Shown here: positions 14,306 to 33,077 of the stretch, piece after piece | Layout: each line of letters opens with the position of its first letter | Position numbering within the stretch: the first letter of the stretch is position 1 | Virus record (IMG/VR): IMGVR_UViG_3300009527_000006 | Coordinates: 28,026 to 92,025 of that record | Source of the DNA: a virus | Reading direction: 5' to 3' (one strand) | DNA: 64,000 bases | Notes under the pieces: model-generated | What the model was told of the DNA's origin: nothing | Databases searched by the model: none | What the model saw: only the letters and a program-made list of their open reading frames with translations | Position numbers and translations under genes: made by a program

Positions 14306-14323
14306 GACATTATTTAATGTGTA

Positions 14324-14641: not shown

Positions 14642-14760
14642 GCACATATTTATATTTTACTTGTCAAAGGTTATATTATTTCGGTTTGGTATAATTATAT
14701 AATAAAGAATCTATGCATAGATATGTCACATAACCATTACATAGATTCTTTATCAATTTA

Positions 14761-15078: not shown

Positions 15079-15080
15079 AA

Positions 15081-15428
15081 TTATATAATTTTCTGATTAA
15101 GTTCTAAGAGTGATTCTAAATCCACTTTCTCTGGAGATGCTATTGCAACTATAGTATCTATAACAGAATCTAAATCCAAATCATATACTATTCTATTAGA
15201 AGCAAAAACATCAAAGGTTTCTTGATCTAGTTCCTCTTTATTGATATGATAATTAATTATAATATTATCCATATTAGGATTAACTACCGCAGTCCATACT
15301 CTAGAATCATATTTTGCATATTTAATTTCTAGTTTATTAACTATAATAGAAGCATCATCTAGTTTTTTACTAAATTCTTCCACAGTCATTGCCCATTTTT
15401 TAGGCTTTTTGTTTATATATTTTTTCAT
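15081..15428 (-). CDS. hypothetical protein (paralog of previous gene)
   Basis: Tight operon spacing; shared motif. Confidence 0.6.
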   Translation of the reverse strand: MKKYINKKPKKWAMTVEEFSKKLDDASIIVNKLEIKYAKYDSRVWTAVVNPNMDNIIINYHINKEELDQETFDVFASNRIVYDLDLDSVIDTIVAIASPEKVDLESLLELNQKII

Positions 15429-15430
15429 TA

Positions 15431-16159
15431 TTACTTGTTTTTTGAAGTACAGTAAATGGTTGTGTTTGTTTTGTTAGATGCTATTATTGAGCCTATATCT
15501 AGAATTTTTATATTGACTCCTTCTTTAACGGAAAGAATTCTATCTAAAAAATCTAACCGATATACATGTTCTTTGATAGCAAAAGAGTTATTGGACGAAA
15601 TTAAAATTTTCATTCCATCTAGATGATTTTGTTTTTTATCACCGAAGAATAGATATAAATTAGAATTTTCAGTCTCTAAACCAAATTTCTTATGCTCGGA
15701 TGAAAAGGAAAGTCCTTTTTTAAGTATCTGATACTGTTTCTCGTCAAGAGAAAACTCAGCTTGAATCTTTTTATACGCAAGTAAAGAAAAGGGATTGAAT
15801 GCTGGAGGAGCAACACTTGCATCAGTCAATAATCTTATTCTAAAAGAGTGATCTGCCCCACAATAAGTCAAAAATGAAAAATTGTTAATAGTTTCTACTC
15901 GAAGAACTACCAAATCATCTGCTATACATTCCAGTGCCTGACGAAGTTTAGAAATATCTAAATTTATTTTTTCCAGACCATCTGCAAATTCTTCTAATGT
16001 GAACGTAGAGTAAAAATGAACTTCATCTATTACAGATGAATAAATGGTATATACTTGATCATTTTTGAAGAAAAGTGTTCCCATTCCGTTTCTATTGATG
16101 GCTAATAGGGGATTTATAAACTCTGTAATAGCGCGTTTTCTATTGATCTTGAATGTCAT
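15431..16159 (-). CDS. putative sliding clamp (gp45-like)
   Basis: 242 aa, two-domain alpha/beta pattern, near gp32; no diagnostic motif. Confidence 0.5.
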   Translation of the reverse strand: MTFKINRKRAITEFINPLLAINRNGMGTLFFKNDQVYTIYSSVIDEVHFYSTFTLEEFADGLEKINLDISKLRQALECIADDLVVLRVETINNFSFLTYCGADHSFRIRLLTDASVAPPAFNPFSLLAYKKIQAEFSLDEKQYQILKKGLSFSSEHKKFGLETENSNLYLFFGDKKQNHLDGMKILISSNNSFAIKEHVYRLDFLDRILSVKEGVNIKILDIGSIIASNKTNTTIYCTSKNK

Positions 16160-16727
16160 TTTCGCTGTTGGTAGAAGGTTCTACTTCTTTAGTTAGTTTA
16201 GCATCTCTCACTTCCTCAAGCAACTCTTTAATCATCTTTTTTATTGCCCTAAGCTCAGACAGCATACTTTTTTCATAATCAGTGTTTTTTTCCTTTTTAG
16301 TAGAAGATGACTTATCTTGGGATGCCTCAAATCTATTATATTGAGGCATTGTGAAAGTAGCACCGCCTGAAGGAATATTAGGATTTTGTAAAGGATTATT
16401 ATACTGAGGAGGAGCATAATTCACCGGAGCATTATGATCTACAATCATATTTCCTTTTTCATCTATTCCTACTGGAACGGGAATAAAAGTTGGGGGGGTT
16501 TGCTCAATATTAACATTAAAATTTCCTACAGGATGTGACTGTATTTGCGGAATATGTGCCTGTTGAGGAATATTTCTATTAGAGCTTATAAATTTTTTCG
16601 GTGACACGTCATGGGTTCCCATAATATTATTAAGTTCACTTCTACGACTATTACTAAACAGTCTTTTCATTTCTTGTGAAGTAGAATGTGCTAATTTAGC
16701 CAAATCCATCATATCATCAGTTTGCAT
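16140..16727 (-). CDS. hypothetical P/Q-rich protein
   Basis: 195-aa ORF with TAAATA box 6 nt upstream. Confidence 0.55.
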   Translation of the reverse strand: MQTDDMMDLAKLAHSTSQEMKRLFSNSRRSELNNIMGTHDVSPKKFISSNRNIPQQAHIPQIQSHPVGNFNVNIEQTPPTFIPVPVGIDEKGNMIVDHNAPVNYAPPQYNNPLQNPNIPSGGATFTMPQYNRFEASQDKSSSTKKEKNTDYEKSMLSELRAIKKMIKELLEEVRDAKLTKEVEPSTNSENDIQDQ

Positions 16728-16756
16728 GGAGATTATTTATAAGTTAATATTAATAT

Positions 16757-16790
16757 AAAAAGGGGGAAGACGTAGGTCTTCCCCCTTTTT
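16757..16790. terminator. intrinsic terminator
   Basis: AAAAAGGGGGAAGAC-GTAG-GTCTTCCCCCTTTTT downstream of gp32. Confidence 0.85.
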
Positions 16791-16800
16791 TAATATCTAA

Positions 16801-17754
16801 TTAGATATTAACATCGTCATCATCATCATCATCCAAAATAAAGTCATTAAGACCATCGTCATCACCATCATCATTATCAACAACTCTATTCTGTGTTTGA
16901 GAGCGAGAATTTGTCGAGCTATTAACAGATTCATTGGCAATAGGACCATCCTCCCCAAACCAATACTGGTCAATGAGAGATTTGAGTTCGTCTTCAGACT
17001 TTACCGCAGGAACTAATTCCAAAAGATTGTGAACTGAATTTTCAATCCTCTCGTAATCAGAAGGTGACAAATTATCAACTGCTTTACTGTCAGCAAATTT
17101 TGAAGTAGAATAATTATTCCAATCAGCCTTTGTAGTAACACGGACAATCAGCGACCTTCCTTTAGGTGAAAGATCAAATGCCTTAATTCCTACATCATCT
17201 CCACCTAAAACTTCTTCATCAATAAGTTTCGCTAAATCACTCTTAATTTCACCAGTTTTCTTGTCTATACCAGCAGAATATTTAAGGACAACTACTGTTC
17301 CTATTTTTTGTTGTGCATCAGGATCATCGCCTTCCACTTTGTGCAAGAAGGCATTTACCAATTCATGACGCTGTGGAATCAATTTGTAACTACGCTTCAT
17401 AGCATCTTCATCACCACTCTTTTTGGCTTCACTAAAAAGCTTCCATTGTAGTTTGTTGATGTAATCATTTTTTGCTTGAGTAGGATCTGCATCTGATAGA
17501 GATCTTCCTAGATAAATGTATTCAGAAGGAGTTGTCAACGTCTCAAACCCAATATCTTTATAGTTTACAAAAGTTTGATCATTTCCATCTGAATCTGTGG
17601 AACGCAAAAGTCTTACATAGTATTTGCAATTTTTCTTGAATTTCAAGATTCTTGGATCAGAATTTCCAGACCCTCCACTTTTTTCCTTTTTAAGCTTTTC
17701 TGCTTTTGAATTTCTAATTTTTTCTAATGTTTCTTCTAATGTTGGTTTTCTCAT
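16801..17754 (-). CDS. single-stranded DNA-binding protein (gp32-like)
   Basis: 'DPRILKF..VRLL', 'AFDLSPKG', 'WNNYSTSKF', very acidic C-terminal tail. Confidence 0.8.
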   Translation of the reverse strand: MRKPTLEETLEKIRNSKAEKLKKEKSGGSGNSDPRILKFKKNCKYYVRLLRSTDSDGNDQTFVNYKDIGFETLTTPSEYIYLGRSLSDADPTQAKNDYINKLQWKLFSEAKKSGDEDAMKRSYKLIPQRHELVNAFLHKVEGDDPDAQQKIGTVVVLKYSAGIDKKTGEIKSDLAKLIDEEVLGGDDVGIKAFDLSPKGRSLIVRVTTKADWNNYSTSKFADSKAVDNLSPSDYERIENSVHNLLELVPAVKSEDELKSLIDQYWFGEDGPIANESVNSSTNSRSQTQNRVVDNDDGDDDGLNDFILDDDDDDDVNI

Positions 17755-17810
17755 AATATATTATTGTTCTTATTGTTCTTATTCTAGATAGAATATCTAT
17801 CCGAAAGTAT

Positions 17811-18434
17811 TTATAGTTTATTTGCCAGTATAACCTGATTTATAGTTTTTTTAAGCAATTTACTGGCAGAATATTTTGTATGTAAAAAATTTAATTGATC
17901 TTTCGTATCACCAAGATAAAGCTCATATTCTTCTGGTGGAAGATTAAGAAGTTTGGCAAAACCCTCTAGATAGAAAACGGTATATAGGTTAGTGCTTTTA
18001 TTTTTAAGATGAAGAAGATAATCTGGCTGATGAACAGTAGCATAGTTTAGGTAGTCTGTCAACTTTATTTTCTTTTCTTTACAGAAATCCAGCACAAATT
18101 TTACGCATTCTGTAGTATATCTAATATTATCAGGATGATCGGTATTTTCAGATACTAGTAAGTTTACATAGCTAGAACATACTAGCATACACTTAACTGT
18201 AGAAAAATAATTCAAAGAAAAAAACTTTTTATCTTTATAAATTTTATAGGGTGCGATAAAATATGTTCTTGACATTAGGTGAGGATGTTTTTGAAAAAAC
18301 TTTTCAAGTTTTTCAAGAGCACCCTTTTTAGAATCATCTAATTTTTCATATTTTAGCAAACTTTTACATGGGCGATCATTTGCTTCAGCAAGAGCCTCTA
18401 GGAAAAGATTGTAAATTTTTAATTTATTGTCCAT
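17811..18434 (-). CDS. hypothetical protein (helicase-loader gp59 position)
   Basis: ORF from MDNKLK, overlapping the upstream gene's stop; function by synteny only. Confidence 0.45.
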   Translation of the reverse strand: MDNKLKIYNLFLEALAEANDRPCKSLLKYEKLDDSKKGALEKLEKFFQKHPHLMSRTYFIAPYKIYKDKKFFSLNYFSTVKCMLVCSSYVNLLVSENTDHPDNIRYTTECVKFVLDFCKEKKIKLTDYLNYATVHQPDYLLHLKNKSTNLYTVFYLEGFAKLLNLPPEEYELYLGDTKDQLNFLHTKYSASKLLKKTINQVILANKL

Positions 18435-18888
18435 TGTTGCGACTATACAGAAATTTATCAATATTATCAAGACTTTCAGGACCAACTAGTTCTCCACTTA
18501 TAGCGATAGAATGGCCGTCTTTGAGCAAAGTTACTAATGACTCAACCACATCACTTGATAAAAAATCAAATTTAGCTCCTAGAAAAAATAAATATATTTG
18601 TTCTAAAGTTACAAGACCGTCTTTCCATTTAATATAATAAGAACAGAAATCAGTATATTTTACGAGAATATCTAGATAAGAATAAGCATTACTGTCGTTG
18701 TCTAAAATATTACTACAATCTATATGATCCTGATTTAAAAATTTTTCTTTACTAGAAAGGTAAGTTCCGCAATAATAAACAATTTCAGTATCTTTTGACA
18801 CCGTATTTGTAAAAAATTGTAGCGTTAGTGCAAATGATTCTAACCAAGTATCAAAATCGTAGTCAGGGCAGAGAGTTTTAATTTTCAT
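18424..18888 (-). CDS. hypothetical protein
   Basis: ORF from MKIKTL, just after a TTGACT..TATTCT promoter (18895-18922). Confidence 0.55.
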   Translation of the reverse strand: MKIKTLCPDYDFDTWLESFALTLQFFTNTVSKDTEIVYYCGTYLSSKEKFLNQDHIDCSNILDNDSNAYSYLDILVKYTDFCSYYIKWKDGLVTLEQIYLFFLGAKFDFLSSDVVESLVTLLKDGHSIAISGELVGPESLDNIDKFLYSRNNGQ

Positions 18889-18973
18889 AATAATAGAATA
18901 CAGCACATAATTCAGAAGTCAAGCGCTAAATTCAATCATTTAGATATTTTGAAGACACTACTAAATCACAAGA

Positions 18974-19062
18974 GGCGAACAAAACGGATGCAGACAACGC
19001 TCTATAAGTTGTTTGTCACATTCATAGTCTTTTATTCGCGTGTCTGATCCGAAGCGTTCGGG
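18974..19062 (+). repeat. attC site 1 (type A)
   Basis: GGCGAAC AAAA CGGAT(G)CAGACA(A)CGC...GCG TGTCTG ATCCG AAGC GTTCGGG; two extrahelical bases 6 bp apart. Confidence 0.88.
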
Positions 19063-19088
19063 CAATACGCATCCACACAAAATCACGC

Positions 19089-19529
19089 ATGTATAATAGA
19101 CCGTCTAATTCTGAAGTTGCGGAAATTACTGGATACAATCTTCCTATAGAAGAAATCTCAGAATTTCCCACAGCTAAACAGCAACAAGAAGGAGGTTATA
19201 TTTTGAAGTATATTGGCCGCATCTCAGATACTTGTGATACCTTCTTGAAAACTGCACATGGTAAGGTAGTTGCTATAATATTGCTTATCCATGGAATCAT
19301 CGGATTTGCTAGAGATGCATTTGATGGTGCAACATACATCTATAATGCATCTGCTCCTATGCTTGAAAGGATTGAGACTTTTGTATTTTCTCATAAGAAC
19401 CAAGAAGTCTCTCCCGAATACCTAGTATTGATCCCAAAAGAAACGCACCTGACACTGCCCGTAAAAGATTGGGCTGATTTTCCGGCAGGAACCCAATTTG
19501 CGCCAGCCAGTAGCATAGATTACACATAG
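19089..19529 (+). CDS. cassette 1 forward ORF, membrane-anchored hypothetical
   Basis: Starts ~30 nt after the GTT core; hydrophobic 'VVAIILLIHGIIGF'. Confidence 0.6.
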   Translation: MYNRPSNSEVAEITGYNLPIEEISEFPTAKQQQEGGYILKYIGRISDTCDTFLKTAHGKVVAIILLIHGIIGFARDAFDGATYIYNASAPMLERIETFVFSHKNQEVSPEYLVLIPKETHLTLPVKDWADFPAGTQFAPASSIDYT

Positions 19530-19608
19530 CCAACGATCCAAAATATATAAATGCAAATATTTCACAACAAACCCATACTTTATTCAAATAATTATATTTA
19601 TTAGACAT
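19357..19608 (-). CDS. cassette 1 reverse ORF, small 2-TM protein
   Basis: TATAAATA (19615-19622) 6 nt before ATG; two hydrophobic segments; overlaps the forward ORF. Confidence 0.45.
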   Translation of the reverse strand: MSNKYNYLNKVWVCCEIFAFIYFGSLAMCNLCYWLAQIGFLPENQPNLLRAVSGAFLLGSILGIRERLLGSYEKIQKSQSFQA

Positions 19609-19644
19609 TTTACCTATTTATAAAGACTTTAGACTAAAACAAGA

Positions 19645-19734
19645 CCCGAACAAAGAAACTGGAGACAACAGCTCAGCATAGTTATTCTCCTATATTAGTT
19701 CTGTGTTCGCTGTGTCTCAGTTTAGACGTTCGCC
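19645..19734 (+). repeat. attC site 2 (type B)
   Basis: CCCGAAC AAAG AAACT(G)GAGACA(A)CAGC...GCTG TGTCTC AGTTT AGAC GTTCGCC. Confidence 0.88.
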
Positions 19735-19758
19735 TAACAACACACAGCCTCTACTACA

Positions 19759-20031
19759 ATGTATAAAACTCAGCCTAAATATCGGGCCATCATTCGTTTC
19801 TCCTTGGATAAGGATGAGAGTTCAAAGTTTCGCAACTCTGTTATTAGAAAACTTAGAAAAGCTAAATTCACCAACACAAATAAGACTGGTTCTTGGGAGA
19901 CTCCATCCGCAGATTTATCTATTATTCAGTCATTAGTCTGCACCGTTATGAACGAACTAGGTAAAGTAACGAATGACGACGGAAAGCCCGTAACATTGGA
20001 CCATATGTGGATGTGCATAGATAAAGTTTAA
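19759..20031 (+). CDS. cassette 2 forward ORF, basic 90-aa hypothetical
   Basis: Starts ~30 nt after GTT; stop overlaps the reverse-gene stop (TTAA). Confidence 0.6.
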   Translation: MYKTQPKYRAIIRFSLDKDESSKFRNSVIRKLRKAKFTNTNKTGSWETPSADLSIIQSLVCTVMNELGKVTNDDGKPVTLDHMWMCIDKV

Positions 20032-20198
20032 TCTTCTTCGTTCCACCTAGGGTCATCATCTGACCATTCATTCCATCCAGATTCGATTTCGTCTGAGTCT
20101 GAATTGATAACTATTTTTGTTTTAGATTCAGTATGACACCCACAGTTGCCACATACGCCGCTAATAACGACTTCTATAGGTTGAGAATTATTTTTCAT
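20028..20198 (-). CDS. cassette 2 reverse ORF, 56-aa acidic CxxC peptide (not in ORF track)
   Basis: MKNNSQPIEVVISGVCGNCGCHTES...; ATAAATA at 20206-20212 upstream. Confidence 0.55.
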   Translation of the reverse strand: MKNNSQPIEVVISGVCGNCGCHTESKTKIVINSDSDEIESGWNEWSDDDPRWNEED

Positions 20199-20236
20199 AA
20201 TCAGCTATTTATTGGCAGCTCTTGCTATAAACAAGA

Positions 20237-20325
20237 GGCGAACAAAACGGATGCAGACAACGCTCTATAAGTTTTATGTCACATTCAGAGTTTAGTATTC
20301 GCGTGTCTGATCCGAGACGTTCGTC
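20237..20325 (+). repeat. attC site 3 (type A)
   Basis: Arms near-identical to attC1; ends GTTCGTC. Confidence 0.88.
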
Positions 20326-20912
20326 TTATGAAATGCCACCCAGTGAGTCTGCGCTTTCTTGCCGCTACGGTGGCCGTAGAGCGGGCGTTCTGGCGTGAGT
20401 GCCAGCACTTCGCGGAGCGGGATTTCAGCCTCGCACCATTTGAAGATCATCGTTCCATTCACTTTCAGGACACGGAAGCATTCAGCGAATCCCGCCCGCA
20501 GGTCGTCGCGCCATGTCGCATCCAGAAGCCCGAAGTCGAAGGCGATGCGTCCCGTTGCCCCGGCTCCTTTATGGAAGTGCGGCGGATCGAATACCACATG
20601 CCAGAACGACTCATCAGGGAACGGCATGTTTCGGAAGTCCACCACCATATCAGGCGCGACGGTTTTCGGGGTGCGCCCGATGGTTCCCGGCGTTCCCACG
20701 TCGATGATTCGCGTGCCTTGGCGTTTGTCCACATACAGGGCGCGGTCATCCTGTTTATCGAACCAGAACATTCTGGTTGAGCAGCACGCATCCAATACCG
20801 GAGGCAAAGACGAACAAGTCGCTGCATGCAACCCGCTTTCTGCGTGCTGTTGGCGCGTTAATGTGAAGAGGTCATCCATAGGTGTATCGGTGTATTGTGT
20901 CAGCGGGTGCAT
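20292..20912 (-). CDS. cassette 3: class I SAM-dependent (probably DNA adenine) methyltransferase, GC-rich
   Basis: 'VLDACCSTRMFWFDK', 'DFRNMPFPDESF..VVFDPPH', 'ECFRVLK..FKW'; start lies inside attC4 and stop inside attC3. Confidence 0.85.
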   Translation of the reverse strand: MHPLTQYTDTPMDDLFTLTRQQHAESGLHAATCSSLPPVLDACCSTRMFWFDKQDDRALYVDKRQGTRIIDVGTPGTIGRTPKTVAPDMVVDFRNMPFPDESFWHVVFDPPHFHKGAGATGRIAFDFGLLDATWRDDLRAGFAECFRVLKVNGTMIFKWCEAEIPLREVLALTPERPLYGHRSGKKAQTHWVAFHKTNVSDQTREY

Positions 20913-20928
20913 GAGCTAGGCGTTCGCC
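20809..20928 (+). repeat. attC site 4 (type C, canonical geometry)
   Basis: GACGAAC AAGTC GCT(G)CATGCA(A)CCCGCT...AGCGGG TGCATG AGC TAGGC GTTCGCC. Confidence 0.92.
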
Positions 20929-20937
20929 TAAAAACCA

Positions 20938-21192
20938 ATGCACTCATCACAAACTAATTCGCAGATGATAATCGCGCACATGCTAGCCAATGATAACGGA
21001 GCCATTTTTCATTTTGAGGACTATAGATTCAATGTTCGTCCTGAAGATCGAGTCACTTCCAGCAATTGGCCTAGTGGTATAACATTGCACATTAGACTTT
21101 CTAGCACAGGGCTGAGCGCAGCTTCTTACGAGAACGAGACAGTGCTCGGTGAATATGTGGATGAAAGAGGAACTCCCATTTTGCCTTATTAG
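20938..21192 (+). CDS. cassette 4 forward ORF, 84-aa hypothetical
   Basis: Starts ~10 nt after the R' box; stop overlaps the reverse-gene stop. Confidence 0.55.
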   Translation: MHSSQTNSQMIIAHMLANDNGAIFHFEDYRFNVRPEDRVTSSNWPSGITLHIRLSSTGLSAASYENETVLGEYVDERGTPILPY

Positions 21193-21428
21193 GAATTATT
21201 ACTTGGATCATTCGGAATTGCATGGCCGAATCTCAGCACTTCACCATTGTCATATAGATAGGCCATTCCACGAATTCCAAAAGGACCATTATACTTACCT
21301 TTCTCATTCTGTATTTTTATGTTCTCGTGCATAGTCCATCTTCGCCAGATTCCAATAGCTTCATCATACGGAAGTGCCTCTGGATCTGGGTATTTGGTTA
21401 AGTCTATTGGGTTGTCTAAATTTAACAT
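21189..21428 (-). CDS. cassette 4 reverse ORF, ~79-aa hypothetical
   Basis: TAAGTA box (21438-21443) upstream of ATG 21428. Confidence 0.6.
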   Translation of the reverse strand: MLNLDNPIDLTKYPDPEALPYDEAIGIWRRWTMHENIKIQNEKGKYNGPFGIRGMAYLYDNGEVLRFGHAIPNDPSNNS

Positions 21429-21468
21429 ATTCAAAGCTACTTATTCGTAGTCAAATGCTAAAACAAGA

Positions 21469-21558
21469 GGCGAACAAAGAAACTGGAGACAACAGCTCAG
21501 CATAGCTATTCTCCTATATTAGTTCTGTGTTCGCTGTGTCTCAGTTTAGATGTTCGCC
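21469..21558 (+). repeat. attC site 5 (type B)
   Basis: Nearly identical to attC2; GGCGAAC...GTTCGCC. Confidence 0.88.
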
Positions 21559-21573
21559 CAACCTCACCACACC

Positions 21574-21759
21574 ATGTCTATTATAAAGAAACCTAGTTCG
21601 TGCGTATTTTGCAGATCTGCACTGATTAAAGGTCCGATTAAGAGAGATCGTAATTTAAATGAAACTATTGAAATGAAGAGTGTCGTTTATATTTGTGAGC
21701 AATGTAATTTTGTTCACGAATTTAATATTCATACTACTAAAAAATCTAAGATGAAGTAG
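21574..21759 (+). CDS. cassette 5 forward ORF, zinc-ribbon protein
   Basis: CVFC...CEQC motif pair; AC-rich leader. Confidence 0.65.
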   Translation: MSIIKKPSSCVFCRSALIKGPIKRDRNLNETIEMKSVVYICEQCNFVHEFNIHTTKKSKMK

Positions 21760-21910
21760 TAGACACGAAACATGCAAGCCCATCACATTGAGCATTCCAC
21801 ATTTCATCCAGAATTCTATCATTATTTTCCTGTTCTTCTTTGGAAAGTCTCATCCAATGACACTGCTCCACTTCTAACCATTCACGTATCTTTGCTTTTA
21901 TCCATTGCAT
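21746..21910 (-). CDS. cassette 5 reverse ORF, 54 aa (not in ORF track)
   Basis: MQWIKAKIREWLEVEQCHW...; TAAGTA box 21920-21925 upstream. Confidence 0.55.
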   Translation of the reverse strand: MQWIKAKIREWLEVEQCHWMRLSKEEQENNDRILDEMWNAQCDGLACFVSTTSS

Positions 21911-21949
21911 AGTAGTCAATACTTATGAAGCTAATAAACAGAAACAAGA

Positions 21950-22038
21950 GGCGAACAAAACGGATGCAGACAACGCTCTATAAGTTTTATGTCACATTCA
22001 TAATTTTATATTCGCGTGTCTGATCCGAGACGTTCGGG
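21950..22038 (+). repeat. attC site 6 (type A)
   Basis: Arms identical to attC3; ends GTTCGGG. Confidence 0.88.
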
Positions 22039-22194
22039 TAAAACAGAACATAAACACCACAATGAATGAATCTACGTTAGTTGATTGCGCTAAATGGTTA
22101 TATGAAAAGCAGCAAGAGAACCTAAAAGCCGGAAAGAATCTACTTTGGCAGCCACATATAATAACCGTTCTTTTAAACTTACAAAAATCTAAAG

Positions 22195-23421
22195 TCATAC
22201 TTTTAAGATATAAACTCTCGATTTTTTGTTAAATTCCTGCTTCACAGACGGGCTAACCAAAGTCGTTTCCGACAATGGTGAACTCCCATCTCCACAGGCT
22301 TGAATTCCCGAAGAACTTTCGGTATAAATTTGTTTCAGATTCAAACTCGCATTTAAATCTCTATCTATTTTCATATCACACATTTTACATTCAAATACTC
22401 GGTCTGTCAACTTCAAATCTGAATTTTTCCATCCGCAACATGAACATAATTTAGAACTGGCGTAGAAAGTATCTGCGAAGACAACTTTTCTATTATTCCA
22501 TTTCGCTTTATATTCAATTTGGCGACGAAATTCATAAAGTCCTACGTCACTGATAGCCTGAGCCAAACAGTGATTTTTCAACATATTGCTTACTTTCAAA
22601 TCTTCCAACACAATTACATTGTTTTTCTGTATTATGTTAGAAGTGATTCTATGTAAGCAATCTTTACGAATATTTGATATGTGATAATGTAATTTTGCTA
22701 ACTTTTGTTTTGCTTTTCCATAATTTTTACTTCCTTTTTTCTTTCTTGATAATTGTTTTTGTTTGCGTTTTAGTCTCTTGAGATTTTTCTTTAATGCTTT
22801 TGGATTTTCATAAGTTGTCCCATCTGAGCAAGTAGCTAAAGTTTTAATACCTAAATCAATTCCTACTACCTCATTCTTGGCGTTAGAATGCTCTCTGTCA
22901 GGTGTCTCTACTTGAACTGATACAAACCACTTACCCGCACGTTTCGAGACTGTAGCAGACAGTATTTTACAATCTGTTGGGATGTAATCTTTCTCGGATA
23001 ATTTGAGTTTGTCGATTCGTGGTAGCTTAATGTAATCAGATTCAACTGAAATCGCGCCGTCTAGTCTGAAGGATTGCTTTTCGTTTTTCTTAGATTTAAA
23101 TTTTGGAAATCCTTTCTTACCTTTAACTTTCTTTTTACAACGAGTGAAGAAATTTTGAAATGCTTTATCACAATCTCTTAACGCATTTTGTGGAGAAGTC
23201 TTGCTTGAATTATACATCCAAGGAACATCTGTCTGTTTTAGCTTGTTTAATTCTCTATGAATCTCAATAGCATTTTGAATTTTCTCTTTCTTATCAAATT
23301 GTTCTTTCTTTTTAGCTAATGCCCAATTATATGCCCATCTAGCGCAACCAATATGCTGTAATAACAAGGTTTGTTGCTTGTTATTTACATCTAGCTGAAC
23401 TTTATAGGCGCGGAGAATCAT
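22195..23421 (-). CDS. tnpB: RNA-guided endonuclease TnpB
   Basis: HTH_OrfB N-terminus, RuvC GIDLG / VLEDL / DRDLNAS, zinc finger CSCC..CKMC; all catalytic residues present. Confidence 0.95.
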   Translation of the reverse strand: MILRAYKVQLDVNNKQQTLLLQHIGCARWAYNWALAKKKEQFDKKEKIQNAIEIHRELNKLKQTDVPWMYNSSKTSPQNALRDCDKAFQNFFTRCKKKVKGKKGFPKFKSKKNEKQSFRLDGAISVESDYIKLPRIDKLKLSEKDYIPTDCKILSATVSKRAGKWFVSVQVETPDREHSNAKNEVVGIDLGIKTLATCSDGTTYENPKALKKNLKRLKRKQKQLSRKKKGSKNYGKAKQKLAKLHYHISNIRKDCLHRITSNIIQKNNVIVLEDLKVSNMLKNHCLAQAISDVGLYEFRRQIEYKAKWNNRKVVFADTFYASSKLCSCCGWKNSDLKLTDRVFECKMCDMKIDRDLNASLNLKQIYTESSSGIQACGDGSSPLSETTLVSPSVKQEFNKKSRVYILKV

Positions 23422-24283
23422 TTTAATCTTTCTAAACAAATATCATAATACTCTTTTTCTTTTTCGATGCCGATAAACTGACGATTGAGATTTTTGGCGG
23501 CAACCAGAGTTGTTCCCGAACCAGCAAAAGGATCGAACACCAAATCCTCTTTATTTGAGATAGACTTCACCAAGTCTTCCATCATATTCAACGGTTTTTC
23601 ACATGGATGTTTGTCTTTTCTTTGCGAGACTATTTCATATTCAATTACATCTTCAAATGAAGATAGCGATAACGAATCAAATTTTCGTTTGGATAATTTA
23701 ATACCTAAATCTCCTCTAATTTGGGAAGAAATTTTGGAGATGGAAAGCATCTACCACATTCCCAATTTGATACTTGACCACCATTATTAACGTTTCCATA
23801 AGCACCCAATATTTCAGTAAGCTCTTTTACCGATACCCCCTTAGAAATGCGGGCATTCTTAATGTCATTTGGATAAGAATCTTGTGAAAAATAAATTATT
23901 CTTTCTGATGCTGGATATGGTCGTCTAAGGGAATTTTTATTACACTTATTTTTCCAACCCTCACTCCCCTTATTTGGAAAAGTTTTCTTCCACACAATTT
24001 CAGATTGGAAATTGAAATATTGATTTATCAGGACGGCTAAAAATGGAGCCAATGATGGCTTACAAAAAACGTAACCACTACAAGTATTTTTCATCTTCGG
24101 TTTAAGAATTTTGAAAAAATAATCAAACCATTTTAAAAATTCAGTATCGTTATCATGTTCATTGTCCCAAGTGTGCTTTTTAACATTGTGATAAGGTGGA
24201 TCGGTGACAAGGATATCCACGCTTCCATCTGGAATGTCCTTCATCAATTCTAAACAGTCGCCATGCCAAATTTCTTGTTTCAT
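23418..24283 (-). pseudogene. N6/N4 DNA methyltransferase (beta class) with inserted XRE HTH, frameshifted
   Basis: 'GDCLELMKDIPDGSVD..TDPPY' in 23705-24283; 'HPCEKP..DPFAGSGTT..IGIE' in 23418-23750; one extra T at 23707-23709 joins them (EEILGIKL). Confidence 0.85.
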
Positions 24284-25311
24284 TCCATCGCCTCCTTTTC
24301 TTTCTTTTTACGATTCTGTGAGCTAATCATACCCAATCCTTCTCTAATTAGATACAGGCGACCAGTCGAAGTTTTTAACTCTTTTGCTACGCCTCTCCAA
24401 GTTTGATGTTTATCAAACAAATCGTGCAGTTGTTTTACTGTAATATCTGAACGCTTTTTCCGTAAAATTTGCTGAGATAGACACTCTAAATATAATTCAT
24501 ACTTTCTATCCAAATACACTTTAGCGTTTGAGTATATTGGTCTTAATATGTTTTGAACTAACTCGACCCCCGCCGAAGATATGCAGCAAGTTTCTGAATC
24601 TCCCTCTCCATATTTTGATAGGATTTTTGCGCGACATTTGCTATACGAAAGAATATACTCTTGAAATTTCTCAATAACAAGCCTATTTCCAACAAGATTA
24701 ATTGTCCACACCCAAGATTTTTTATATTTGGGTTCAAGCGTTTTAGAAATGCAGCCATCACCGTCAAATATGCCTCGCCAAAAATGACAGTGTAAATCCT
24801 TTGGAATTAAATTTAACGGAGGAATAAAGCTAAAAGATTTTCTCGGTAAAATACCAAATTTAGCCAAATCATTGCATATTTTTCTGTTACCAATTACAAT
24901 TCGACACGACTCAAATATTTTACTATTATCACCCCCTTCAAAAGAGGGCGAACTTCTACATATTTTAATTGGATGCGCCGAACGGCAAAATTTCTTAAAT
25001 TTTTCTAAGTGCAACAAATCTGACTTTTTTAAACCTATATTCAATCCTCCATAATCGGTTACGTTGCCGTCGGCGGCAATGAATCCAAGCCAATAAGCCT
25101 TATCTTCTGTGTCAATTTTTTCAAAAATAGAATCGTCAATAGTATATTTAGAGTTATTTTTAATTTTGATACCCCTTTTTTTGGCTTCTCTGGTGCAGCA
25201 TTCGCTACTTAATCCGTAAACAGCCGCCGCCCTTTGTGCAGAATCCCCGTTTACATATAGATTAATCATTCCGTCCTTTTCTTCTTGTGTAATAGTGCGT
25301 CTCATATACAT
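24280..25311 (-). CDS. free-standing LAGLIDADG homing endonuclease
   Basis: 'KAYWLGFIAADG' and 'HFWRGIFDGDG' motifs; HTH-like termini. Confidence 0.9.
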   Translation of the reverse strand: MYMRRTITQEEKDGMINLYVNGDSAQRAAAVYGLSSECCTREAKKRGIKIKNNSKYTIDDSIFEKIDTEDKAYWLGFIAADGNVTDYGGLNIGLKKSDLLHLEKFKKFCRSAHPIKICRSSPSFEGGDNSKIFESCRIVIGNRKICNDLAKFGILPRKSFSFIPPLNLIPKDLHCHFWRGIFDGDGCISKTLEPKYKKSWVWTINLVGNRLVIEKFQEYILSYSKCRAKILSKYGEGDSETCCISSAGVELVQNILRPIYSNAKVYLDRKYELYLECLSQQILRKKRSDITVKQLHDLFDKHQTWRGVAKELKTSTGRLYLIREGLGMISSQNRKKKEKEAME

Positions 25312-25327
25312 ATATTTACACTAAAAA

Positions 25328-25888
25328 TCACTCTTTTTCACAAAAATCTGATAAAACTTCATCATCGGGATAGATTTCTGTAGTCACCTCTTCCACCTTT
25401 TCAATTCTAACTCCATAGGAATTAAAATAAGACAAAAGATAATTAAAACAAAATCTTGATAATCTATCTTTATGCTCAATTAAGACTACATCAATTTCTT
25501 TCTTTTCTACTAACTCAAAAAGTTTCTGCAATTTCTTGCGATTGTCGTTCATTCCTGAACCAACTTCATCAAAAACAGCAACAATAGAATAACCACGCTT
25601 CAATGCCTCTGTAGTCATTCTGCCGACTTGTCTTTCTAAATCACCTTTAGTCTTCTGTTCATGTGAACTAACGCGACAATAGATAGCCACACGCTTACCA
25701 TCTGTTACTTTAACAGGTTCTACATAGATTCCCGCCAATTTCTCAATATCGGCTCTGTAATAGCGTCTATGACCACCTTTTGTATGGAATGGCGTTAATT
25801 TGCCTTCTCGCTCCCAATTTCTAAGAGTTTCGTCGGAAACGCCTAAAATGGACGCAGCATCACTAATTGATAGAATCTTTTTATCCAT
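25328..25888 (-). CDS. tnpA: IS607 transposase TnpA (MerR HTH + serine resolvase), C-terminally disrupted
   Basis: 'TLRNWEREG..TKGGHRRY', 'IYCRVSS..DLERQ', 'EHKDRLSRF'; usual C-terminal helix missing. Confidence 0.9.
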   Translation of the reverse strand: MDKKILSISDAASILGVSDETLRNWEREGKLTPFHTKGGHRRYYRADIEKLAGIYVEPVKVTDGKRVAIYCRVSSHEQKTKGDLERQVGRMTTEALKRGYSIVAVFDEVGSGMNDNRKKLQKLFELVEKKEIDVVLIEHKDRLSRFCFNYLLSYFNSYGVRIEKVEEVTTEIYPDDEVLSDFCEKE

Positions 25889-26057
25889 TTTTGTCTATCA
25901 ATCCTTTCTGTTGAAACAACCTAAACCATTCGTCATAGATTCGTTGAAATTCCTCTACGGTTGGAACTTCATCTAATTCAAACGGAATATCATGGATAAC
26001 TCCATCATCGGTTTCAAATTCTGTTGCTGTAACTCTTGTAATCATTTTTGGCTTCAT
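25881..26057 (-). CDS. 58-aa ORF at IS left end (not in ORF track)
   Basis: MKPKMITRVTATEFETDDG...VPTVEEFQRIYDEW; overlaps the tnpA start; TAAATA box upstream. Confidence 0.6.
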   Translation of the reverse strand: MKPKMITRVTATEFETDDGVIHDIPFELDEVPTVEEFQRIYDEWFRLFQQKGLIDKNG

Positions 26058-26248
26058 ATATATTTACACTAAAAGTTTAGATTTTCTACGAAAAAAGTGA
26101 AAATATTTTAACTTTCTTTAGATATTTTAGATTATCGGGCAACTGTTGTCAACCCTCGGAAAGTTGTGGTTACTATTTGTTTCCTGTTTTGCGATATTAT
26201 CCACTGCTCTGATCACCGAGTTTATAAAACAAGATGGGTATAAGTTGT

Positions 26249-26503
26249 TTAAGTCCAGCCTAAATAATGAACACACAAAAGCATCGGAACCACCCCCATC
26301 ACAAACAACAAAACACATAAAATAATCAACCATCCTAATGCCATGAAGAGGCATTCTACAAAAGCCTTAAACTCACCATCAAACCCGAACAAAACGGATG
26401 CAGGCAACACCTCTGGGCTGTCTGTCGTATTATTCATAGTATTTTCGTTCGGTGTGCCTGATCCGAGACGTTCGCCTTCTGCTAATTTAGTTTGTTTTTT
26501 CAT
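26249..26503 (-). CDS. cassette 6 reverse ORF, membrane peptide read through attC7
   Basis: ATAAATA 26511-26517 before ATG 26503; second in-frame ATG (26437) inside attC7; hydrophobic C-half. Confidence 0.5.
   Translation of the reverse strand: MKKQTKLAEGERLGSGTPNENTMNNTTDSPEVLPASVLFGFDGEFKAFVECLFMALGWLIILCVLLFVMGVVPMLLCVHYLGWT
26384..26476 (+). repeat. attC site 7 (type A variant)
   Basis: CCCGAAC AAAA CGGAT(G)CAGGCA(A)CACC...GGTG TGCCTG ATCCG AGAC GTTCGCC; compensatory changes relative to attC1. Confidence 0.88.
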
Positions 26504-26671
26504 CAAAAGCTATTTATGAAATAATATTATTAATTCAACCAGCATAATAATAACCATGTTTAACTACCTAAAGACTAGCTTGTGTCAATTTTGTAAAGGA
26601 ACCACTGACCCATCCACAAAGAAAGAGATTTAAACTCTTCATTTGAGATAAAGTGTGTTATTTATATTTTT

Positions 26672-26763
26672 GAGGCTCTATAAGTTTTATGTCACATTCA
26701 TAGCTTAGAACTCACTATGTCTCAGCGTAAACTTACCATTCATGTCTGCGCTAGGCGTTTGCC
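26672..26763 (+). repeat. decayed attC site 8
   Basis: Type A loop 'GCTCTATAAGTTTTATGTCACATTCATA' with left arm deleted; right arm TGTCTGCGCTAGGCGTTTGCC. Confidence 0.65.
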
Positions 26764-26782
26764 TTAACTGCATAATGTTCAA

Positions 26783-27064
26783 CTACAGTGGAACCAAATC
26801 TTCAAATTTTATTTTCTTACTTTTATGAAGAATTGGATATTTATTAGAAAGAATTTCTACTATCTCAAACCAAGAAAGATTTGTCATATCTATGAAAATA
26901 TCACGTAAATTTTGGCTTTTTTCAAGAGTTAAATATAAATGAATACATGATACAGGTTTATCATATACAGTCGTCAAAAACCCTCCTAAACACCTAAATT
27001 GATGGTCTAGTTCTTCTCGGTCAATGAGTTCAAATGCAGTAGGCTGCTCAAGATTTTTAATCAT
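26783..27064 (-). CDS. hypothetical protein
   Basis: 93-aa ORF following the helicase. Confidence 0.5.
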   Translation of the reverse strand: MIKNLEQPTAFELIDREELDHQFRCLGGFLTTVYDKPVSCIHLYLTLEKSQNLRDIFIDMTNLSWFEIVEILSNKYPILHKSKKIKFEDLVPL

Positions 27065-27109
27065 ATTTTTACTTAAAAAAATAAAAATCTATTGCAATAA
27101 TTTACTGTT

Positions 27110-28465
27110 TTAGGTTGTCATAAATTCTTCCATCGAGAATTTCTTTTTCAATATACTTGACCTAGAATCTTCATATGATTGCTCAGTATCTTCTTCTTCA
27201 AAAAATCTCAGTGTGCTATAATCAATATTCAAGTATCCCCCGCCATTGAGAGCACCGTCTCTAGATTTCTTACCCTTAACTAATACTCTGTTAAGTTCAC
27301 GGTCTTCATCTGTTTGTGACATGACTGTAAGATTATCAAAATCGCCTAGCATTGAATATGAACCAGCCATATTATCCAAGTCAGCAGAATTATTTCGATG
27401 TCCGTCTCTATTGAGTTGTGCAGGAGTTAATAGAGGGCATTCAAAAATATAACTGAGCCCTCTTACTTCTTGAGTAATATACTGAAATTCGTCGTGCTTA
27501 GGAACATTGCTTTTTGTAGATTTACATAGAGTAATATAATCCAGTATTATCACCGATGGTTTGAAATTTTTCTTTCTTTCTAATTTTTTAATAAAGGATT
27601 TAATGTTAGTAGGAGTCACTGATTTAGCCGCGAACTCTTTGATTACTAATCTAGAAGTTTTATCAGAAATAAAATCATCCACATACTCTCTATACTCTAA
27701 TAGCCTGTCTCCTATTTCTCCTAGAGCAATACCCGTTAACATACCAGAAATTCTACGAGCATATCTTTTTTCACTCATTTCTAAAGTTATAATTACTACA
27801 TCCTCATTCTGTCTGAGAATGTTAGTTCCAATGTTTCCCACCAAAAGTGATTTTCCGACATTAGTGGAGCCAGCTACGCCATATATTGCTCGCCCTTCTT
27901 TAAACATTCCTCCACCAAATGCTTCATCCACTATCTTATATCCGGTGCTTAGAAAAACATCCTTTTCAGTTAAAATAGATTCTACCCTACTTCTTTCGGC
28001 AAAATATTCCAACCCTAGATTATCTACTAATGAAATATTAGATATAGTTTCTTGTTCAGTTTGAAAATCATCTAAATCTATTTCTTGTTTTTCTGTCTTA
28101 TCATCAATAGCCTTTTCTAGAAGATTTTCTGTTTTTCTCTGCTTTATAAAATACTCTGCATTAGCAAGCAATTCGTCTTCATTACATTCATCCGCAATAT
28201 TTTCATTTTTTATAAGATCAATCGCTTTTTTAAGATGTTCTTTATTTTTAGTAGTATTAAACCGGGTTTTTAATTCTGTAAAATTAGGAACTGCGGACCT
28301 TTCTACATAAAAATCTTTAATAGTCTGTGCTATTGCAGAGAAGTTTTCGTTTTTGAAAATATCTGCTCCAATATATTCTATGCAAGAACCTAGTAATATT
28401 CCATCTTTTTTGAGAAGATTCTTCATAAGAATCTTCTCAAAAAAATCTAAATCAATTTTGCTCAT
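27110..28465 (-). CDS. DnaB-like replicative helicase (gp41)
   Basis: Walker A 'GSTNVGKS', 'ITLEMSE', 'IILDYI', 'AQLNR', 'KSRDG'. Confidence 0.92.
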   Translation of the reverse strand: MSKIDLDFFEKILMKNLLKKDGILLGSCIEYIGADIFKNENFSAIAQTIKDFYVERSAVPNFTELKTRFNTTKNKEHLKKAIDLIKNENIADECNEDELLANAEYFIKQRKTENLLEKAIDDKTEKQEIDLDDFQTEQETISNISLVDNLGLEYFAERSRVESILTEKDVFLSTGYKIVDEAFGGGMFKEGRAIYGVAGSTNVGKSLLVGNIGTNILRQNEDVVIITLEMSEKRYARRISGMLTGIALGEIGDRLLEYREYVDDFISDKTSRLVIKEFAAKSVTPTNIKSFIKKLERKKNFKPSVIILDYITLCKSTKSNVPKHDEFQYITQEVRGLSYIFECPLLTPAQLNRDGHRNNSADLDNMAGSYSMLGDFDNLTVMSQTDEDRELNRVLVKGKKSRDGALNGGGYLNIDYSTLRFFEEEDTEQSYEDSRSSILKKKFSMEEFMTT

Positions 28466-28474
28466 ATGTATTTG

Positions 28475-28768
28475 CTAGACTATAGCATATGTAACCTCTA
28501 ACAGTCTAGAAGAATCTTTAGATAGGTATTTCATTTCTACCCATTTTTCAAAATAATCTCCGGTAACTTGATCTTCCAGTTCGGTAGGCTGGTCAGTATA
28601 AAAATTACCGCTTTTATATAATTTATATAATTGTCCAGCAGTGACTACTAATTTTGCCCCATTAGCATCTACTGTTTCTATAGCAGGGGTAGATTCATCA
28701 ATATGAAAATATTGAATCTTAGGTTTGTCTACAAACATCGAAGTCTTTTTTATTGTGACACGAATCAT
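28475..28768 (-). CDS. hypothetical protein
   Basis: 97-aa ORF coupled to uvsX (4-nt overlap). Confidence 0.55.
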   Translation of the reverse strand: MIRVTIKKTSMFVDKPKIQYFHIDESTPAIETVDANGAKLVVTAGQLYKLYKSGNFYTDQPTELEDQVTGDYFEKWVEMKYLSKDSSRLLEVTYAIV

Positions 28769-29784
28769 ACGTTATCTGGATTTAATGCAAACATCTTATT
28801 GCACATAGTTTTGAAAGACGCATCTTCTACTAGTGATTGCATAAGATTATCAGTTTCTTCTAGCTCTTTGCGTCTAAAAACTTTGTCATTGCCAATGAGT
28901 TTATACCATCCTTGCTTTTCTGAATAGATATGTTTAGTTTCAAGTGCAAGGTCAAATATTCCAGAGTATTTAGAAATTCCATCATCAAAACTAACGGTTA
29001 CTGGAAAATCGGATTTTTCTCTGACATATCTAGAAAATTTTGATTTCAATACAAAATCAAATCCAGTCAATTCAGAATCAACCTTCTTTTGTCGTTTTCC
29101 AATATTCCACAACGTATGTCCAGCATATTCTGCCCCTCTTCCTCCAGAAGCCTTTTCTTCAGGAAACATGTCCATTGTTTGGTAGCTATGATTAATTACT
29201 ATACAAGTAATGCCCTTGAAATTTATCTGTCCATTAGCAATTCGGAATACAGATTTCAACGCCTTTGCTCTAGTGAAATCAGCTTTATCATTTTCGTTCT
29301 TTGCATCCTCTACTTCTTTCGCACTGGCTAACATACCAATACTATCGACGCAAATAAGAACCTTATCACCGACTTCTATATCAGTAACTAAATTAGCCAA
29401 ATCACTCTTCCACTGTTCTACAGTAAAAATAGGTCTTCTGTCAAAATTTTCACCCGGACGAATATCTATTCCTACTCCTTCAAAATATGAATTAGGTGAG
29501 CCGAACTCCGAATCATAAAAAATGATGAGATTATCTTGGTCCTTATACTTCCTTTGGAACGACTTCATTGCTTGAATCATTAGATTAGTTTTGAAGTGCT
29601 TTGGTGGAGCAGCAATCATAACTATCCCAGCCGGAAGACCTTTATCGAAAGATCCTGATATTGCTAAATTAAGAATAGGAACATCAAAAGGTATAAAATT
29701 TTCAGATTCCCAATAATTAGATTTCTCTAATATTTTTTTATCAATTACAGTATTGGCACGAAGTTTATCAAAAAGTTTTGACAT
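28765..29784 (-). CDS. uvsX: RecA-like recombinase
   Basis: 'AAPPKHFKT', 'FYDSEFG', 'DSIGMLAS.KEVEDA..ADFTRAK', 'SGGRG'. Confidence 0.93.
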   Translation of the reverse strand: MSKLFDKLRANTVIDKKILEKSNYWESENFIPFDVPILNLAISGSFDKGLPAGIVMIAAPPKHFKTNLMIQAMKSFQRKYKDQDNLIIFYDSEFGSPNSYFEGVGIDIRPGENFDRRPIFTVEQWKSDLANLVTDIEVGDKVLICVDSIGMLASAKEVEDAKNENDKADFTRAKALKSVFRIANGQINFKGITCIVINHSYQTMDMFPEEKASGGRGAEYAGHTLWNIGKRQKKVDSELTGFDFVLKSKFSRYVREKSDFPVTVSFDDGISKYSGIFDLALETKHIYSEKQGWYKLIGNDKVFRRKELEETDNLMQSLVEDASFKTMCNKMFALNPDNV

Positions 29785-29822
29785 ATATTAACTATAGCAC
29801 ATCAAATTGACAGTTTCAAGTT

Positions 29823-30188
29823 TTAGTATAAATTAAATTCTGGAACATCTTCTTTAGGAAGAAATCTTTTCACAAATTTTTCATTTTTATAACCATTTAT
29901 TAATTCAGGAGAAAGTTGTAAATTGTCCATGAGAAGACTTTTTTTATGAAGTTTAATATAGTATTCATTAAAATCTGTATCTGGACTTAAAATAGCCTTC
30001 AGAGAAACTGGAACAGGTTCTAATGAAAGTAAATCAATTGGAGGAAATTGAACTTGATAATCTCCGGGCTTAGATGATTTAACCGACACCACTGCGGCTG
30101 CTTTTAAGTAGATAAATTCTTCATCTTCTTTATAAAGTAATCCTATAATTGTTTCTGAAATGTTTCTATAAACTGCTCTAACTTCCAT
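29823..30188 (-). CDS. hypothetical (possible Sm-like fold)
   Basis: 'ETIIGLL..EDEEFIYLK'; ATCAATA box upstream. Confidence 0.45.
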   Translation of the reverse strand: MEVRAVYRNISETIIGLLYKEDEEFIYLKAAAVVSVKSSKPGDYQVQFPPIDLLSLEPVPVSLKAILSPDTDFNEYYIKLHKKSLLMDNLQLSPELINGYKNEKFVKRFLPKEDVPEFNLY

Positions 30189-30214
30189 TATATTATTGAT
30201 AACGAATATTACGT

Positions 30215-30520
30215 TTATGCAAGAAAATAATCTTCTTTCTTTAGAGAATCTTGTCTATCATACTCTTGCCTAACACCTATTTTGAAATTCATTACTAAAT
30301 TATCTTTTTCAAATTGCTCTCTTTGAACTGCTTTTATAAGTTTAGTAACATCATTAGAATACAATCTATACAATTCTTGCTTAGAAATCCACCGACCCTC
30401 AGAAAAATCATCAGATATAATTTCTATATCACGATTTTCAAAAACACTCTGATACGATCTATATAATTCAGCAGAGTATTTGTTTTTAATACTTAAAAAT
30501 TTCTGATATAGGTGCTTCAT
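30215..30520 (-). CDS. hypothetical protein
   Basis: 101-aa ORF overlapping the polymerase end. Confidence 0.45.
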   Translation of the reverse strand: MKHLYQKFLSIKNKYSAELYRSYQSVFENRDIEIISDDFSEGRWISKQELYRLYSNDVTKLIKAVQREQFEKDNLVMNFKIGVRQEYDRQDSLKKEDYFLA

Positions 30521-33044: not shown

Positions 33045-33077
33045 TTATATCTAACATAACACTGCTACAGTCTGCTA

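Follow-up and report, generated by a model that had tools for sequence, protein, structure and literature searches.

The sequence analyzed here is a stretch of 64,000 nucleotides (nt), hereafter the window, which corresponds to positions 28026-92025 of a 92-kb IMG/VR virus record without terminal repeats and with a CheckV completeness estimate of 35%. Between a gene for a gp32-like single-stranded DNA-binding protein (SSB) and a gene for a DnaB-like helicase, i.e., within the phage replication module, lie seven imperfect palindromes of 89-120 nt. All are on the plus strand, span positions 18974-26476 and are followed by a degenerate half-site at approximately 26665-26760 (Table 1). The palindromes have the structure of integron attC sites and separate six cassettes. 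We are confident that 18974-26760 is an integron-type cassette array without an integrase, i.e., a cluster of attC sites lacking an integron integrase (CALIN), and that its cassettes were inserted as circles by the integrase, IntI, between the G and the TT of the site (G|TT). A covariance model of the site family (R2), used to search the 64-kb window, identified the same seven same-strand sites with E values of 1e-19 to 2e-8 and gave no further match.

Table 1. Sites and cassettes of the array and genes of the surrounding phage backbone (window coordinates; bits and E values refer to covariance model R2; ORF, open reading frame; HTH, helix-turn-helix)
Feature	Position	Strand	Details
attC0, type A	18974..19062	+	R'' GGCGAAC, R' GTTCGGG; 67.3 bits, E 7e-14; supported by fold
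cassette 1	19057..19728	+	672 bp, GC 0.38; from TTCGGG to G of attC1 R'
cassette 1, convergent ORFs	19089-19529(+), 19357-19608(-)		without family match
attC1, type B	19645..19734	+	R'' CCCGAAC, R' GTTCGCC; 62.1 bits; supported by fold
cassette 2	19729..20319	+	591 bp, GC 0.39; ORFs 19759-20031(+), 20028-20198(-)
attC2, type A	20237..20325	+	R'' GGCGAAC, R' GTTCGTC; 73.1 bits
cassette 3	20320..20922	+	603 bp, GC 0.57; bottom-strand DNA methyltransferase (phrog_954)
attC3, unique 120-nt GC-rich type	20809..20928	+	R'' GACGAAC, R' GTTCGCC; 44.3 bits, E 2e-8
cassette 4	20923..21552	+	630 bp, GC 0.41; ORFs 20938-21192(+), 21189-21434(-)
attC4, type B	21469..21558	+	R'' GGCGAAC, R' GTTCGCC; sole self-complementary site of the array
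cassette 5	21553..22032	+	480 bp, GC 0.36; ORFs 21550-21759(+), 21746-21919(-)
attC5, type A	21950..22038	+	R'' GGCGAAC, R' GTTCGGG; 70.7 bits
cassette 6	22033..26470	+	4438 bp, GC 0.35; enlarged by secondary insertions
cassette 6, TnpB	22195-23439	-	
cassette 6, N6/N4 DNA methylase	23418-23750 + 23705-24283	-	split in two ORFs
cassette 6, LAGLIDADG-like ORF	24280-25311	-	
cassette 6, IS607-type serine recombinase	25328-25888	-	MerR-HTH
attC6, type A variant	26384..26476	+	R'' CCCGAAC, R' GTTCGCC; 91.6 bits; compensatory stem changes
half-attC remnant, degenerate	26665..26760	+	identified by repeat family D5 and sequence; no covariance model match
baseplate protein, gp5/gpV-like	9384-11021	+	
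gp32-like SSB	16801-17754	-	317 aa, left of array
DnaB-like helicase	27110-28465	-	
family-B DNA polymerase	30486-33044	-	
SbcC-like ATPase; superfamily 1 and 2 helicases	near array		

Both strands of the sites fold alike: an R stem of 7 bp is followed by a 4x4-nt internal loop, then by stems of 5 bp and 6 bp, each ending in a bulge, and finally by 3-4 more pairs. The 4x4-nt spacer (3x3 with a G:T pair) occurs in seven of seven sites, and the terminal loops measure 37-75 nt. The features by which attC sites are recognized (an unpaired spacer, a variable loop and a length of ~57-141 nt) are therefore all found in the window. AAC and GTT are present in 7/7 window sites; among 65 members of the family, AAC is present in 65/65 and GTT in 60-64/65. 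Two top-strand bases are bulged, a G (62/65 sites) and an A (64/65), six paired positions apart, and they appear as T-N6-C on the bottom strand. These extrahelical bases occupy the 5' arm of the plus strand, which is the 3' arm of the bottom strand.

The stems of these sites covary. A compensatory change in the last site, noted when the window was examined from its sequence only, was confirmed: CAGACA/TGTCTG of the first site is replaced by CAGGCA/TGCCTG. In a second stem segment, ACGC/GCGT is replaced by ACACC/GGTGT. Likewise, the unique site type of attC3 recurs at two loci outside the window (L037 and L041) with compensatory changes. In an alignment of 65 sites, which was fitted to the covariance model and is thus biased toward structure, 17 of the 20 stem pairs vary on both sides. 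Pairing was found in 87% of paired cells, compared to 73% in shuffled alignments and 24-36% when the partner was slid by 1-3 columns, and none of 500 shuffles reached the observed value. The outer three pairs of the R box are unpaired in 28-42% of distinct sites and AAC/GTT are paired in 96-98%; a sizable unpaired share in the outer R box is what a hybrid R' box predicts.

According to the sequence-only reading, each cassette opens with a 7-mer whose exact reverse complement opens the cassette's own downstream attC. All twelve 7-mers were verified: GTTCGGG 19056 / CCCGAAC 19645; GTTCGCC 19728 / GGCGAAC 20237; GTTCGTC 20319 / GACGAAC 20809; GTTCGCC 20922 / GGCGAAC 21469; GTTCGCC 21552 / GGCGAAC 21950; and GTTCGGG 22032 / CCCGAAC 26384. 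Each opening GTTCGnn is thus answered by nnCGAAC in 6/6 cassettes, with a complementarity of 7-9 nt. The two ends of a single array site were claimed to mismatch as a rule, and indeed just one of the seven sites is self-complementary (attC4, 21469/21552). Variation among the 7-mers is confined to their last two letters, and by exact permutation a score of 6/6 is expected in 12/720 arrangements (p = 0.017; 0.006 by a product model). In the window by itself, end-matching is suggestive, not strong, and the most telling single case is that of the GC-rich cassette 3, whose TC/GA pair is unique.

Relatives of the window sites were collected by exact scans of IMG/VR, first with the right arm of the site and subsequently with its left arm, and served to build covariance models R1 and then R2 (65 sites). 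A single 17-mer retrieved more than 40 IMG/VR contigs, several of which are rated complete, and related sites occur in more than 45 viral contigs with a GC content of 44-66%. About ten of the 16 viral_contigs matches to the 16-mer TGATCCGAGACGTTCG contained no site and were dropped as chance matches. Same-strand arrays found with the covariance model comprise up to at least 11 sites at spacings of 220-1100 bp. In order to extend end-matching to the family, the six positions after GTT in R' were compared with R'' of the next site for neighboring sites in about 30 IMG/VR contigs. Five or six of the six positions match in 67/81 junctions, or 64/76 without the window's own junctions, and the same comparison made within one site reaches this level in 6/112. 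Shuffling of partners (10,000 times) produced 5.9 such junctions on average and never more than 15. Many of the matches involve rare boxes, e.g., GTTCTGCTC/GAGCAGAAC and GTTAGAGGT. Since the rule is replicated across arrays, end-matching is a property of the attC family and not a coincidence of the window.

When the cassettes were circularized in silico, by joining the last G to the first TTCGnn as the sequence-only reading had proposed, a fully paired R box was restored in all six, and the folding energy of the bottom strand was lower by 0.9-4.8 kcal/mol in each. The prediction tested by end-matching is symmetric, and end-matching cannot by itself show which box is cut. Orientation is settled by the positions of the extrahelical bases and by two observations described below, namely that cassette 3 and attC3 move together and how the arrays of four related records are placed with respect to intI. 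An argument from a hybrid R' box and the complement of the cassette start is said to have been the original evidence for the integron crossover point, in work by Hall, Brookes and Stokes in 1991 and by Stokes and colleagues in 1997. The end-matching rule itself is nothing new; it is textbook knowledge and the way in which the crossover point was first deduced. The G|TT crossover has been restated more recently (PMC3518468).

Searching for a cassette with the same boundaries but different neighbors was a further check suggested from the sequence, and cassette 3 provided one. When 82 cassettes of the collected arrays were compared all against all, few proved to be shared; the result was too sparse to use, and a targeted search with the cassette 3 protein was carried out instead. 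The methyltransferase ORF of this cassette begins within attC3, the cassette's own site, and terminates within attC2. IMG/VR contains 289 relatives of the protein, and a site of the family lies over the 5' end of the gene in 9 of 37 loci searched. Near-identical copies of cassette 3 are present in two unrelated viral contigs of 59-62% GC from different samples. One of them (L076) matches window positions 20319-20832 at 92.2% identity, starting exactly at the G of GTT and ending inside the cassette's own attC; the other (L075) matches 20307-20832 at 90.5% identity. Across the three contexts the interiors of the upstream attC sites are unlike, identity begins at GTTCGTCTTATG and extends into the cassette's own attC, and both the next R' letters (GCC, TCC, CCC) and the cassettes that follow differ. 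More distant homologues (L077, L089 and L063) carry other R-box letters, each complementary to its own R'' (GGCT/AGCC, TGCT/AGCA), and homologues of the methyltransferase that lie outside cassettes lack the first 22-27 residues. Homologous cassettes with boundaries unrelated to the GTT position had been named as the finding that would contradict insertion at G|TT; cassette 3 was checked for this and the reading held. Cassette 3 looks like a recent import. The other five of the six cassettes have a phage-like GC content (0.35-0.41), and these AT-rich cassettes are either long-term residents of the phage or move around among AT-rich phages.

Cassette content was further compared, over positions 17500-27500, with the Logan contigs of three runs (X2-X4), which come from other freshwater studies and contain 32-40% of the array's words. 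Stretches left uncovered in these runs were not counted as absence. In other freshwater studies, the differences among related phage populations concern entire cassettes. A contig of X3 joins 20317 to 20921 and is thereby missing 603 bp, which is exactly cassette 3, with six ambiguous letters (CGTTCG) at the joint. A contig of X4 is missing exactly cassettes 3, 4 and 5. Contigs of X2 and X3 pass into unrelated sequence after 19737/19738, just beyond R' of attC1, and a contig of X3 does the same after 22036, inside R' of attC5.

The site family is physically linked to integron integrases. Matches to TIGR02249 of 236-352 bits were obtained in 4 of 29 related viral records, and two of these (347 and 352 bits) exceed the 265-bit cut-off. 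In all four records intI adjoins the array and is transcribed away from it, and the top strand of the sites reads away from intI. From this canonical layout it follows that the plus strand of the window is the attC top strand. The four records (G008, G022, G023 and G019; loci L070-L073) are labeled as viral by IMG/VR; they may be genuine phages, or else fragments of bacterial integrons that were misclassified. Among the related records, those rated at least 90% complete, of which two have terminal repeats, contained no IntI match, and the existence of such complete-rated relatives indicates that integrase-free phage arrays are common.

A scan with the left arm of the site, using one genome per prokaryote species, retrieved at least 120 loci, almost all of them in freshwater metagenome-assembled genomes (MAGs) of Verrucomicrobiota (Prosthecobacter, Verrucomicrobiaceae, Akkermansiaceae, Brevifollis). 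Among the matches listed, one verrucomicrobial MAG has 12 sites in 8 kb, and IntI was detected at 377-395 bits, which exceeds the curated cut-off, in three of five Verrucomicrobiota MAGs tested. Taken together, the left-arm matches and the presence of IntI in these MAGs identify the attC type as that of verrucomicrobial chromosomal integrons. The sedentary chromosomal integrons of Prosthecobacter, Verrucomicrobiaceae and Akkermansiaceae share with the window the attC left arm CGAACAAANCGGATGCAG and the covariance model family. They are bacterial, GC-rich and accompanied by an integrase, whereas the window array resides in a phage backbone of 32% GC, with a phage-like, AT-rich composition in five of the six cassettes. 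Retrieved loci (L155-L234) also suggest that attC type could predict the host or the cassette donor, though the window phage has a GC content of 32%.

In the mechanism we propose, which is the classical one for integrons, IntI would bind the folded bottom strand of attC and cut between the G and the TT of R'. An inserted circle would leave TTnnnn at its own start and, at its end, its attC shortened by this hexamer. The hexamer that follows the G of a given site would then belong to the next cassette and would pair with R'' of that cassette's own attC. A hybrid R' box of this kind explains why all six cassettes are self-complementary and why sites are mismatched. The central claim made from the sequence was that these ends were left by circular cassettes upon insertion at G|TT, and it is borne out by four independent tests, namely the family-wide rule, the boundaries of cassette 3, the whole-cassette skips at R' CGTTCG and the in-silico circularization. 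The acting enzyme is most likely an IntI of the verrucomicrobial type, supplied by the host cell or encoded in the 65% of the phage genome that is unsampled; this enzyme is favored because its site family is used by the chromosomal integrons of Verrucomicrobiota. Recombination may take place in phage DNA during infection. The IntI neighbors of the family and the behavior of other phage attC sites predict that the window sites can be recombined by an integron integrase.

Several points weigh against this interpretation. Searches of the 92-kb record (~35% complete) with TIGR02249 and PF00589 detected no IntI and no tyrosine recombinase, and no attI or cassette promoter (Pc) was identified in the record, although no dedicated test was made for either and attI has no general sequence model. 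(The ORF to the left of the array is of fitting size and strand for IntI; it was considered and rejected, as it encodes the gp32-like SSB.) The consensus core sites are RYYYAAC for R'' and GTTRRRY for R'; the window sites, like 52/65 members of the family, have C in place of R at position 4 of R', and the second extrahelical base is C in place of the G found in the usual T-N6-G on the same arm. Classical integron cassettes are promoterless and carry top-strand genes, whereas most cassettes of the window hold convergent ORF pairs and their bottom-strand genes begin in or beside attC. The contig of X4 joins 20228 to 21942 and lacks 1713 bp, the sum of cassettes 3, 4 and 5 (603 + 630 + 480); this joint falls within 59 nt common to attC2 and attC5 and is equally compatible with homologous recombination or assembly collapse. 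Finally, no circular junction was seen in the assembled contigs that were compared.

The non-canonical GTTCG box and second extrahelical C could also belong to a convergent, phage-native cassette system in which attC-like hairpins are recombined by a phage enzyme other than IntI, e.g., an unrecognized hairpin-specific recombinase. In keeping with this, a tyrosine recombinase is missing not only from the record but also from most related records with a CheckV completeness of at least 90%, and the attC loops of many relatives contain a Shine-Dalgarno (SD) motif and ATG for bottom-strand genes. T-N6-C sites are, however, good IntI substrates, having been efficiently excised or recombined by IntI1, IntI2*179E, IntI3 and SonIntIA (PMC3053210), and canonical GTTAGCC and GTTGGGC boxes are found in the same arrays as the GTTCG boxes. 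Moreover, the family adjoins bona fide IntI in the canonical layout in four viral records and in Verrucomicrobiota genomes, and no candidate for an alternative enzyme was found beside the arrays. We consider a separate phage enzyme very unlikely.

T4-type phages possess promoter early stem-loop (PeSL) units, which combine an early promoter with a stem-loop and are thought to be shuffled by homologous recombination. These modules are short hairpin repeats on either side of small genes in the plastic parts of T4-like genomes, and their existence as small circles has been proposed. If the window sites were regulatory or terminator hairpins that shuffle genes in the same manner, end-matching would be a by-product. 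The location of the sites between divergent ORF starts, the near-identity of the three type-A and two type-B sites and the 1713-bp skip within 59 shared nt would all fit such a history. Against this, the sites flanking cassette 3 are of different types and share only CGTTCG, yet the cassette keeps exact boundaries in all three contexts as well as in the 603-bp skip. Furthermore, an exchange inside the hairpin would not couple the outer R-box letters to the far end of a cassette, as is observed in 67/81 junctions. Breakpoints that are site-specific at G|TT, between unlike sites and in a family linked to IntI argue against a PeSL mechanism, which we judge to be highly improbable.

A combination of chance and metagenome assembly artefact, which would exploit the two variable letters, the p value of 0.017 for the window alone and repeats inviting chimeric joins (in the probable source run, Logan unitigs are interrupted at each of the near-identical type-A and type-B sites), was tested and can practically be dismissed, given that each of these unitigs spans both ends of one cassette, that the rule replicates in about 30 independent contigs with 10,000 shuffles never near the observed count, and that independent studies carry the same cassettes in other arrangements. 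As the unitigs hold both ends of a cassette, end-matching is not an assembly artefact; the order of the cassettes is less secure.

Compared with bacterial integrons, the IntI-built array proposed here has the same AAC/GTT of R''/R', an L stem with two extrahelical bases six nt apart, an unpaired spacer and a variable loop. It is also alike in its same-strand arrangement, in its hybrid R' box and in the divergent layout of the family's intI genes. It is unlike them in its GTTCGnn core, in the C at the second extrahelical position and in the lack of intI in the record. A complete integron has intI adjacent to its array; none was found in the 92-kb record, and the array is accordingly filed as a CALIN. 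A survey of 10,705 NCBI phage genomes identified integron components in 21, including 17 CALINs, some of them in virulent phages (Qi et al. 2023, Front Microbiol; PMC9892861). One of these CALINs is carried by a myovirus with several ORFs between sites, and five cassettes of phage CALINs encode methyltransferases (N6_N4_Mtase, Methyltransf_11) (PMC9892861). Of six phage attC sites assayed in that study, five were recombined by IntI1, at G|TTRRRY (PMC9892861). The window array is similar in being an integrase-free attC cluster of a virulent phage with DNA methyltransferase cassettes. It differs in that the published survey covered NCBI genomes and not IMG/VR, and in that IntI1 recombination was assayed there, whereas our array is known from its sequence alone. 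Particular to the present member of this class are the Verrucomicrobiota-type T-N6-C attC, the T4-like uncultured carrier, the direct evidence of turnover in natural populations and the occurrence in many IMG/VR contigs.

The value of the finding lies in the location and clarity of the array, a live-looking one in a virulent T4-like phage of 32% GC with attC sites that point to Verrucomicrobiota. The attC type could mark the host or donor of uncultured phages, which may in turn contribute more to the integron cassette pool than the surveyed 21/10,705 suggests. A broader hypothesis, which we advance tentatively and regard as rather doubtful, is that virulent freshwater phages, including this T4-like phage, maintain working arrays that share the Verrucomicrobiota cassette pool, swap cassettes during infection by means of host or phage IntI, and use the attC loop as a portable ribosome-binding site and start codon for bottom-strand expression with phage transcription. 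If this were true, phage arrays would be an active counter-defense toolkit (e.g., orphan methyltransferases) rather than passive debris, and attC type would be a host-prediction marker.

With regard to translation, many family members (L008, L020, L022, L041 and others) have an SD-like motif and ATG in the bottom-strand attC loop. Diverse ORFs start in these loops and read through the L''/R'' arm in differing frames, and attC may double as a portable translation start. The SD motif and ATG in the loops of GC-rich relatives also suggested that the repeat might be the conserved 5' leader or N-terminus of a bottom-strand gene family. This was rejected as the main explanation, as frames differ by site, the type-A loops of the window encode only MNVT followed by a stop, and the stems covary. 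Of the cassettes, 45 have their longest ORF on the bottom strand and 32 on the top strand, a count of little weight given that GC-rich DNA produces spurious antisense ORFs.

Cassettes 1, 2, 4 and 5 each contain one convergent pair of small ORFs, with zero Pfam or PHROG matches. The plus-strand ORF begins ~10-30 nt past R', and the minus-strand ORF begins ~30-40 nt ahead of R''. Between attC1 and the minus-strand ORF, the minus strand carries a TATAAATA motif (~19615-19623) that resembles a T4 late promoter. At the left end of the array, attC0 is the first site and is preceded by phage backbone genes; its partner GTTCGCC is absent from positions 1-18973 of the window.

Cassette 6 has swollen to 4.4 kb through an IS607-type element consisting of a serine recombinase and TnpB. 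Diverged contigs of other runs (89-92% alike) omit 22991-26092 and 24325-25397, with joints 22990->26093 and 24324->25398; these joints are weak, one having a short side and the other being without shared letters. They are a weak hint that the stretch encoding TnpB, methylase, LAGLIDADG and recombinase represents separate insertions. A 62-codon bottom-strand ORF begins in the loop of attC6. To the right, the half-attC at 26665-26760 marks the end of the array. In this remnant a type-A loop sequence is joined to unrelated DNA on the right, ending in GTTTGCC, and the R''/L'' arm is missing. For the last cassette, which begins at 26471, no matching R'' was found.

The carrier is a large T4-like phage and apparently virulent. 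The GC content of the window is ~32%, and 99% of the window was found in one groundwater metagenome run in Logan. A megablast search of positions 27000-37000 against the phage collection returned zero matches. At the right edge of the window, a 27-nt tandem repeat (GTTGTAGGTTCCTCTGTTGTAGTTGTA and variants) occupies 63849-64000 and continues past the window end.

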